The notes under the pieces are model-generated. The model ran no database searches, was not told the origin of the DNA, and saw only the letters and a program-made list of their open reading frames with translations. A DNA stretch of 27,341 nucleotides from a virus (Duplodnaviria; Caudoviricetes): IMG/VR virus record IMGVR_UViG_3300043425_001053, positions 1 to 27,341 of that record. One strand, given 5' to 3'. Each line of letters begins with the position of its first letter. The stretch's first letter is position 1. The translations under genes and the position numbers were made by a program. Positions 26,202 to 27,341 of the stretch are shown piece by piece.

Positions 26202-26441
26202 TGTTTCCACGGCCTAGGAGCGTAGCTCTCCACCGTGGCTACTATCGGGCAGCCAGCAATTGTGACATGCCAATTTCCCAGAAAATTGAGCGGAGGGGAC
26301 TATATCCCCCACCACCCCCACGTGGGCACCTGCCCGCCCCCATGTGTGTGTCCGCGTGTGTGCGTGCGTTGGGGCACTTCTTGACGCGACGCGTGTGTAC
26401 GTGCGCGACACGCACGCCTGAGTCTTCTATTCGCGGGGAGG

Positions 26442-26461
26442 TACTGGACAAATTTACAGTA
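26442..26461. promoter_or_regulatory. LexA SOS box 1
   Basis: taCTGGACAAATTTACAGta (CTG-N10-CAG with TA flanks). Confidence 0.7.
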
Positions 26462-26490
26462 TTGACAGGCTGGGGAGAGTATGTTAGAGG
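26462..26490 (+). promoter_or_regulatory. putative sigma70 promoter
   Basis: TTGACA, 17-nt spacer ending in TGn, then TAGAGG (imperfect -10). Confidence 0.45.
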
Positions 26491-26498
26491 GGGTGGAC

Positions 26499-26518
26499 TA
26501 CTGTACACTTATCCAGTA
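26499..26518. promoter_or_regulatory. LexA SOS box 2
   Basis: taCTGTACACTTATCCAGta. Confidence 0.75.
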
Positions 26519-26530
26519 CCCCGGCCTATA

Positions 26531-26550
26531 TGCTGTATAAATATCCAGTA
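26531..26550. promoter_or_regulatory. LexA SOS box 3
   Basis: tgCTGTATAAATATCCAGta. Confidence 0.8.
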
Positions 26551-26561
26551 GAATCAACGAG

Positions 26562-26620
26562 GTGTTACCGATGTTACCTGAAGTAACACTGGATGCTACC
26601 TGAAGTAACACTGGTAACAC
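26562..26620. promoter_or_regulatory. TGTTAC/GTAACA enhancer (UAS) array, CbrB-like; includes a 22-bp tandem repeat
   Basis: TGTTAC at 26563 and 26572, GTAACA at 26583, TGCTAC at 26594, GTAACA at 26605 and 26614; GATGYTACCTGAAGTAACACTG twice (26570-26613). Confidence 0.65.
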
Positions 26621-26638
26621 TTTCTGGCCTGTTCTTTG

Positions 26639-26658
26639 CACTGTATGGATGTACAGGA
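26639..26658. promoter_or_regulatory. LexA SOS box 4
   Basis: caCTGTATGGATGTACAGga (CTGT-N8-ACAG). Confidence 0.8.
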
Positions 26659-26678
26659 GAAAATTCTTTTCCCTTCAA

Positions 26679-26691
26679 AATCAACGACTTG
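26679..26691 (+). promoter_or_regulatory. IHF binding site
   Basis: AATCAA-CGAC-TTG matches WATCAANNNNTTR exactly, with an A/T tract upstream. Confidence 0.7.
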
Positions 26692-26708
26692 CAGCACATT
26701 TTCCAAAG

Positions 26709-26725
26709 TTGGCACGCCACCTGCA
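26709..26725 (+). promoter_or_regulatory. sigma54 (RpoN) -24/-12 promoter
   Basis: TTGGCACG-CCAC-CTGCA; GG (26711-26712) and GC (26723-26724) are separated by 10 nt; predicted +1 near 26736. Confidence 0.75.
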
Positions 26726-26735
26726 CTGTTCTTGG

Positions 26736-27085
26736 CGTCCCGGTGCGTTCCTGCCGGGGTCGCCGGAATGCTGACAGGCTTGCTGGGCGTTATCAGTGCA
26801 TAGGCCAAGGTATGTCTAAGACATATGCGGCTGTCCTGTTACGTGAGTGAGGCCACCAAGGCCGGCAGGGAGTCTATAGGACTCTGGCGTGAGATCGCCG
26901 CCGGCCTCGCAAGGATGCCAGCCAGTTACGGAAAACCTATTTAAGCCGCCCCAGAGGGGGCCGTTACGGGTAGAACGGATTGGCAACGGGTGAGCAGGGC
27001 ACGGGAATTAAAGCAGGCGTGAGTCTAGGGCAATCTGTCCCTAGCGGCTGGCGCGGGTAAAGCCGGGCAAAAAGCAATAAGTGTT
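26736..27085 (+). ncRNA. putative structured leader/ncRNA
   Basis: No + strand ORF of 60 aa or more starts here; several short stems; bounded by the predicted sigma54 start and the ribozyme cleavage site. Confidence 0.45.
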
Positions 27086-27130
27086 CAGGGGTATGCCCCT
27101 GCTGATGAGGCCAGAGGGCCGAAACACTTA
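27078..27130 (+). ncRNA. type III hammerhead ribozyme
   Basis: Stem III TAAGTGT/ACACTTA; GUU cleavage triplet (27083-27085); stem I CAGGGG-TATG-CCCCTG; core CTGATGA; stem II GGCC-AGAG-GGCC; GAAA. Confidence 0.93.
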
Positions 27131-27157
27131 CTAAGGGTGAAGGGTAAAGGTCAAGCC

Positions 27158-27341
27158 ATGACACAATCAAAGCGAGCGAAAGTAGCGGCCAGAAAGTATC
27201 TGGCGAAGGTGGAGAGACAATGGCAGGAAGAACAAAGGCAAGCCATTGAAGCTAAGAGACTGGCAAGGGGTAAGACAAAACAAACAGCCAGCTTCCGGGC
27301 ATCGAAGGCAGGCAGGCCACAACCAGCCAGCAAGGGTCAGG
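27158..27341 (+). CDS. first early gene, basic protein (runs off the window)
   Basis: ATG at 27158 after AAGG; open to the window end: MTQSKRAKVAARKYLAKVERQWQEEQRQAIEAKRLARGKTKQTASFRASKAGRPQPASKGQ. Confidence 0.65.
   Translation, partial: MTQSKRAKVAARKYLAKVERQWQEEQRQAIEAKRLARGKTKQTASFRASKAGRPQPASKGQ

Follow-up and report, generated by a model that had tools for sequence, protein, structure and literature searches.

A stretch of phage DNA of 27,341 nucleotides (the window) carries near its right end, at 27078-27130 on the plus strand, a real and complete type III hammerhead ribozyme motif. We give about even chances to the proposal that this ribozyme cuts the nascent early transcript after U27085, and that the transcript would start about 350 nt upstream at a σ54/IHF promoter furnished with a CbrB-type enhancer. 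The combination of a hammerhead with a conserved CbrB-type σ54 promoter and SOS boxes was not found described, and we draw it here from two diverged genomes, that of the phage in the window and that of a relative (G002).

Table 1. Positions of the features discussed in the text, in the window unless another record is named
Feature	Position	Strand	Remarks
LexA/SOS-box-like palindromes (four)	26444, 26501, 26533, 26641		within 26444..26656
Enhancer-like array TGTTAC-N14-GTAACA-N16-GTAACA	26563-26610		exact CbrB consensus; second overlapping palindrome to 26619
IHF-consensus site	26679..26691		between array and σ54 element; single exact match in the window
Candidate σ54 (RpoN) -24/-12 element GG-N10-GC	26710..26725	+	predicted +1 near 26736
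Predicted leader, about 350 nt	26736..27085	+	would be released with a 2',3'-cyclic phosphate; deduced from promoter and cut site
Type III hammerhead ribozyme	27078..27130	+	Rfam RF00008, pairing, shuffles, syntenic copy in G002
Stem III	27078-84/27124-30		7 bp
GUU triplet	27083-27085	+	predicted cleavage between 27085 and 27086
N17	U27085
Stem I hairpin	27086-91/27096-101	+	6 bp, loop UAUG
Core CUGAUGA	27102-08	+
Stem II	27109-12/27117-20	+	4 bp, loop AGAG
GAA	27121-23	+
Probable first early ORF	27158..27341	+	basic, K/R-rich, at least 61 aa, open at contig end
G002 type III hammerhead	L081:1503-1557		GUA site; same place as the window motif

The phage and its gene layout

The minus strand of the window, a 27-kb record, encodes terminase, portal, capsid, tail and lysin genes. 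Two further records, G001 and L225, derive from the same phage and both end before the hammerhead; G001 (99.99% over 12.8 kb; 92% complete) supplies a further 22 kb or so, with replication and early genes lying on what is the plus strand in the window. The phage also encodes a sigma factor. Its terminase is closest to those of Pelagibacter phages of the HMO-2011 type (57%), and the best 14 matches of its DNA polymerase are Pseudomonas phages at about 60% (Zobellviridae TC6, PA11, O4). We take the phage for a Zobellviridae-like podovirus, for which a Pseudomonas-type host is likely, with the terminase affinity pointing elsewhere. The first solid gene that follows the hammerhead in G002 has homologues among the early genes of GP100, PA11 and O4, and a 241-aa gene of G002 has its best match in Pseudomonas phage GP100. 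The early-gene homology behind the G002 hammerhead implies that the ribozyme heads the early arm, a placement already made in the original prediction and now supported by the early genes of G001 and G002.

Architecture of the hammerhead and of the ORF behind it

A search with the Rfam hammerhead models had been named as a check on the original prediction: RF00008 is matched by 27078-27130 (+) over the whole model (positions 1-54 of 54; 44.5 bits, E 7.5e-7), at a score below the gathering score of 48.5 bits, which is a curation threshold and no structural feature. All model positions are matched, with CUGANGA, GAAA and NUH present in type III order, and 17 of 17 pairs are Watson-Crick (6, 4 and 7 in stems I, II and III). 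Sequence and Rfam thus agree with the complete core (CUGAUGA, GAAA, UH) and the three perfectly paired stems initially described. With a descriptor of the same strictness as the motif itself, 0 of 1000 dinucleotide-shuffled versions of the window gave a match, and with a loose one 3 of 1000; the fold z-score of the motif against shuffles is -2.91. The cut after U27085 at GUU holds as a prediction of the site's position, and GUU is indeed a less common triplet, accounting for 4 of the 116 hammerhead-like motifs in an IMG/VR pattern set in which GUC occurs 89 and GUA 23 times.

The next ATG, at 27158, lies 27 nt after the hammerhead and 32 nt from the end of its core, which is mid-range for phage hammerheads, and its Shine-Dalgarno (SD) duplex (-5.9 kcal/mol) is within the range of the late genes. 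Searches with the 27158 ORF found no homologues. The ORF that follows the hammerhead in G002 is basic as well; the likeness between the two is marginal (shuffle p 0.009 global, 0.049 local), and BLASTP between them gave no match. On these sequence features the ORF is probably a gene, with moderate support, so that of the earlier statement that the ribozyme ends 27 nt before the first early gene the distance stands as given, and the gene status of the ORF is moderately supported only.

Conservation in G002 and other relatives

G002 is the one diverged relative covering the region (its terminase reaches 94% in the best segment), and its hammerhead scores 32.3 bits against RF00008. In a comparison of these two sequences, 4 of the 6 pairs in stem I and 1 of the 5 in stem III are changed in both members, and none is broken. 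The flanks of the two hammerheads do not align. The presence of the motif at the same place in both phages may reflect common descent or replacement, and either points to selection. Among the variants listed are a 2-nt insertion into loop I, carried by a strain in run X4, and a longer loop with stem I intact at a low-depth contig end (X5).

Four cultured Zobellviridae were screened, all four with the core pattern and three with Rfam: GP100 was the sole hammerhead carrier, with a type II motif in its left-end (early) leader region, and O4, PA11 and CW02 showed neither a hammerhead nor a CbrB array. Among 80 loci from terminase scans (25 of 64 parts), many of which stop short of the region, the type III motif was found only in L002. 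Small-terminase scans yielded 4 metagenome and 3 viral loci, with no new one reaching the hammerhead, and a GTDB scan returned 4 MAG contigs at 56-58%, without host information and with no close relative among them. One apparent relative (L223) was rejected as a chance match, and a 12-nt stretch common by eye to the PA11 and O4 leaders was not significant.

These data bear on the reading of the hammerhead as an inactive or neutral passenger, to which we accord only the slenderest chance. The score under the Rfam cut-off, the inactivity of 4 of 18 consensus-conforming hammerheads reported in PMC3088659 and the lack of a hammerhead in three related cultured phages would fit it; against it stand the perfect core and stems, their retention in G002 despite diverged flanks, and GP100's hammerhead of another type (type II) in its early leader region.

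A promoter-like module resembling the crcZ promoter

The longest intergenic block conserved with G002 spans 26552-26743 (76% identity) and contains an array that conforms exactly to the three-part CbrB consensus TGTTAC-N12-14-GTAACA-N15-19-GTAACA (PMC8871633). The array is the single match in the window to its own pattern, which was found in 0 of 100 shuffles, and the three-part consensus is exact also in G002 (L546). It is followed by an exact match to what we take to be the IHF consensus and by a candidate σ54 element with one mismatch to the full σ54 consensus as we assume it. Four palindromes conforming to what is presumably the SOS-box consensus accompany these elements: the box at 26444 abuts a TTGACA (26462-26467), which the boxes at 26501 and 26533 flank on the other side, in an arrangement of box and TTGAC that recurs in G002 and L227, and the box at 26641 lies between the enhancer and the IHF site. 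A strict LexA-box pattern matches these 4 sites and no others in the window, 3 in G002 and 1 in L227, against 112 matches in 300 simulated genomes, about 0.4 each.

Conservation with G002 follows the motifs: of the motif columns 57 of 58 are identical, of the remaining columns 88 of 134; all 30 half-site columns of the array are identical, as are 12 of 12 motif columns of the σ54 element and 0 of its 4 spacer columns. The offsets are equal in both phages (147 and 116 nt from array to σ54 element, 31 nt from IHF site to σ54 element), and conservation stops at 26743, just past the predicted +1, after which 4 of 17 positions are identical. In 300 simulated genomes with 279 σ54-like sites in all, an enhancer of this kind never accompanied such a site, and an IHF site did so once.

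In sequence and by analogy, the module appears to be built like the Pseudomonas crcZ promoter, which makes CbrB-type activation a candidate. In Pseudomonas putida on poor carbon sources, transcription of crcZ, crcY and PP2810 depends on the joint action of CbrB, IHF and σ54 (PMC6296734), and the window shares with these genes the three-part CbrB consensus, the IHF site and GG-N10-GC at similar distances (PMC6296734, PMC8871633), its geometry resembling that of PP2810 (PMC6296734). Unlike crcZ, the candidate module of the window lies in a phage, is accompanied by LexA-like boxes, and would yield an RNA that ends in a ribozyme and is free of CrcZ's A-rich motifs. CbrAB is described as confined to Pseudomonadaceae, and a search of G001, G002 and three other records for the enhancer-binding protein domain PF00158 gave no match. 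Host-read phage promoters have a parallel in the σ54-like promoter P015 of Pseudomonas phage YuA (PMC10914365), and host-repressed ones in the LexA-controlled phage GIL01 (PMC4551915); both phages are unrelated to ours, and the pertinent passages of these papers name no CbrB-type enhancer or ribozyme.

Recurrence of the module and its specificity

TGTTAC/GTAACA arrays alone are common in phages: 3 of the 104 distinct sites of one such pattern have a σ54-like element within 260 nt. The three-part consensus, too, is unspecific as a pattern alone, with about 270 IMG/VR stretches containing it. A scan for it over 29 of 64 IMG/VR parts gave 94 distinct sites, with a σ54-like element downstream in 5 of 90, upstream in 6 of 93 and in 0 of 57 far controls; 9 loci, G002 included, have such an element, two of them counting on both strands. 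An array followed by a σ54-like element is seen at L315/L549, L544, L554, L562, L581, L593, L596 and L501, most of these loci having an IHF-like site in between, and the distance from array end to σ54 element is 66 nt in L581, L593 and L596. Thus, the array-IHF-σ54 module occurs in other phages too, and where their sequence extends far enough operon starts lie behind it; CbrB is not necessarily its activator. A protein other than CbrB would fit the L544/L554 family, in which these half-sites occur again downstream of the promoter; hammerhead cores lie 650 (L544) and 609 nt (L554) downstream of the array and σ54-like element. A general link between phage hammerheads and σ54 sites was rejected, there being no enrichment (4 of 73 sense versus 4 of 73 antisense).

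Pairs of IHF and σ54-like sites are frequent, at an estimated 160 or so IMG/VR stretches (L356-L474), and their distance is 27-30 nt in 78 of 100 distinct sites where 26-34 was allowed; the sequences suggest that σ54 promoters are commoner in phages than reported. SOS-box-like palindromes, possible LexA operators or decoys, stand in tandem upstream of σ54-like elements in L425 (many copies) and L396. GG-N10-GC elements facing the early arm also occur near the genome end in GP100 (L234:265-280) and, as read by eye, in O4 (~L233:49755, minus strand) and PA11 (~L235:43050); O4 has one LexA-like box at L233:49703. The left end of GP100 (LT986460.2, Zobellviridae) is like the window in that its σ54-like element at 265 is followed about 310 nt later by an Rfam hammerhead (573-644). 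It is unlike the window in that this hammerhead is of type II and comes after a 49-aa annotated ORF, with no TGTTAC array or IHF consensus there.

The array and IHF site might instead serve the genome end at the DNA level (as an origin, in packaging, or as operators of a phage protein), with transcription coming from the TTGACA promoter or through the phage sigma factor and the hammerhead trimming the product. This reading, which we hold to be unlikely, could draw on the commonness of arrays without a σ54 site in viral contigs, on the analogy that puts the region near a genome end, on the sigma factor encoded by the phage and on the σ70-like promoters seen by eye in the corresponding region of PA11, O4 and GP100. 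It accounts less readily for the order array-IHF-GG-N10-GC at fixed offsets in two phages and ahead of operons in others, for motif columns conserved around a free spacer with conservation ending at the predicted +1, and for the poor -10 box of the TTGACA promoter (26462), which the promoter scan did not call.

Likely activity of the ribozyme

GUU is a cleavable triplet, GUC and GUA being the fast natural sites (PMC3138052). Folding of the window motif adds a predicted pair between U17 and A14. The last base of loop II is G, which 3 of 34 type III motifs have at this place (29 of the 34 have A), and loop I begins with U, as in 24 of the 34. By eye no pseudoknot between loops I and II is evident in the window motif, and G002 shows 5 bp of loop-loop complementarity. 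At emergence the predicted probabilities of stems I, II and III are 0.95, 0.96 and 0.91 in local and 0.96, 0.65 and 0.62 in global folding, those of stems II and III falling to 0.13 and 0.08 in global folds of longer transcripts. The triplet and the atypical loop II suggest a modest rate, and the modelled folds indicate that cleavage is most likely co-transcriptional and perhaps modest, because the stems are favoured at emergence and outcompeted in longer RNA, and because of GUU, the U17-A14 pair and the G of loop II.

The same GUU site, U17-A14 pair, atypical loop II and competing folds would suit a slow conditional switch acting on translation or decay of the first ORF, with a logic like that of glmS, in place of a constitutive trimmer. 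The arrangement in G002 could be read likewise, in that stem III overlaps its ATG, and loop II/stem II contains a strong SD (-10.7 kcal/mol). We nevertheless regard a switch as very unlikely: the overlap with the ribosome-binding site is absent from the window, no ligand-binding domain was seen, and predicted accessibility of the ribosome site is hardly altered by cleavage (0.55 to 0.49 in the window, 0.50 to 0.48 in G002), for which reason a translational switch by cleavage was rejected.

Predicted fate of the leader and of the processed transcript

Hammerhead cleavage leaves a 2',3'-cyclic phosphate and a 5'-OH, chemistry that the original prediction had stated and that is established (PMC6765202). 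It had also held that the leader is released as a discrete RNA. A task of its own for such an RNA is unsupported, the leader being unconserved in G002, of unequal length (350 nt in the window, about 475 nt in G002, with no alignable sequence between them) and, in the window, of a fold z-score of -0.89. It is quite improbable, in our estimate, that the released leader is the product that matters, as a small RNA like CrcZ or RsmZ or as a cyclic-phosphate signal whose 3' end the hammerhead makes. The promoter layout is that of the small-RNA gene crcZ, and the G002 leader, which folds better than shuffles (z -2.17), opens with three GGA-loop hairpins (L081:1041-1100), Rsm-RNA-like and absent from the window. 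The motif counts speak against such a role: GGA occurs 7 times in the window leader (6.1 expected) and 10 times in that of G002 (13.8 expected), hairpin GGA is not enriched (p 0.12 and 0.74), and AANAANAA is absent from the leader. A sponge for Rsm/Csr or Crc, of CrcZ or RsmY/Z type, was rejected on this lack of GGA or AANAANAA enrichment. Rfam detected no second ribozyme or RNA family in the leaders of the window and G002, the matches to mir-466 and sR46 falling far under their cut-offs.

The processed mRNA is predicted to begin 72 nt before the ATG at 27158 with the stem I hairpin (27086-27101), which is kept in both the MFE and the centroid structure of 27086-27160. RNase E prefers a 5'-P over a 5'-OH and likewise over a 5'-PPP (PMC10939160). 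The earlier argument that a 5'-OH end is a poor substrate for 5'-dependent RNase E stands in itself, and is qualified by the fact that the 5'-PPP of an uncut transcript is disfavoured as well. As both ends are disfavoured, the gain from a 5'-OH would lie in escape from RppH conversion to 5'-P, with direct entry of RNase E unaffected.

Proposed model

The model that we favour begins with a host enhancer-binding protein, CbrB or a relative (the phage encodes none), which would bind the array; IHF would loop the array to the σ54 polymerase, and transcription would start near 26736, with the LexA boxes damping both the σ54 promoter and the weaker upstream TTGACA promoter. The ribozyme would fold on emergence and drop the leader of about 350 nt, so that the processed mRNA would start with a 5'-OH and a 6-bp hairpin 72 nt before the first ATG. 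Its end would be identical from either promoter, and its entry into 5'-end-dependent decay slow. The idea of one end whichever promoter fired had been put forward before; the two candidate promoters fit it. More broadly, and tentatively, it is possible that this phage and several others with the module let host CbrB and LexA time their early genes, the ribozyme making a fixed, decay-resistant end. If this is true, proteins of the host would suffice for the phage to read the nutrition and DNA damage of that host; and should CbrB read the enhancer, early transcription of the phage would be wired to host catabolite status, of which searches of the CC-licensed PMC/bioRxiv literature showed no case. 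A piece of about 800 bp holds the candidate promoter, leader, ribozyme and first gene, and the stabilisation idea could be tested on it without phage culture.

Relationship to known phage hammerheads

The closest precedent is HHphage of HF1/HF2 (Perreault et al. 2011, PMC3088659), a hammerhead that likewise precedes the first ORF of an early polycistronic transcript, at 13 nt versus 27 nt in the window; the same source maps the 5' end of an HF2 transcript within 3 nt of its hammerhead site. HHphage as described there is unlike the window motif in being a core variant from an archaeal virus, whereas the window core is canonical, the host is bacterial, and a candidate promoter of σ54/CbrB type lies upstream. 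The intergenic hammerheads of PaP3 and Bcep176 (PMC3088659) and RF00008 (clan CL00010) share with the window the topology, the core, the 6-bp stem I and the 4-bp stem II; the window motif departs from them in its score under the cut-off, the rare GUU, the G end of loop II and the lack of an evident pseudoknot.

A pattern with the window's stem II retrieved 128 IMG/VR stretches from 23 of 64 parts, and 118 distinct motifs, G002 included, fold as type I (77), type III (39) or neither (2). Within 70 nt of the motif, an SD and an ATG ORF of at least 50 codons follow in 71 of the 109 cases with enough downstream sequence, against 193 of 1480 random control positions. Hammerheads are known to flank prophage genes and the HF1/HF2 case is published (PMC3088659), so a phage hammerhead just before a ribosome-binding site is a common and already published arrangement. 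For this reason the ribozyme alone is less remarkable than the original prediction held, being one further case of a known and unexplained pattern; the role of phage ribozymes is described as still open (PMC6765202).

Other features of these genomes

A C-rich tract at 26280-26345 of the window resembles the start of the GP100 record and the termini of O4 and PA11, and by this analogy is probably a physical genome end or terminal repeat. A run of alternating GT/GC dinucleotides (26339-26420), present in L227 and not in G002, gave rise to the spurious mir-466 match. In G002 a stretch of about 870 nt, possibly an intron, splits the large terminase gene (L002:10001-12790) directly behind the Walker A region, and an extra 214-aa ORF lies between the small and large terminase genes (L002:9350-9994). 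The last 250 nt or so of G001 (L218:7850-8131) are GC-rich and likely represent a chimeric contig end; by eye this end resembles what we take to be the C-terminus of a bacterial DNA ligase.
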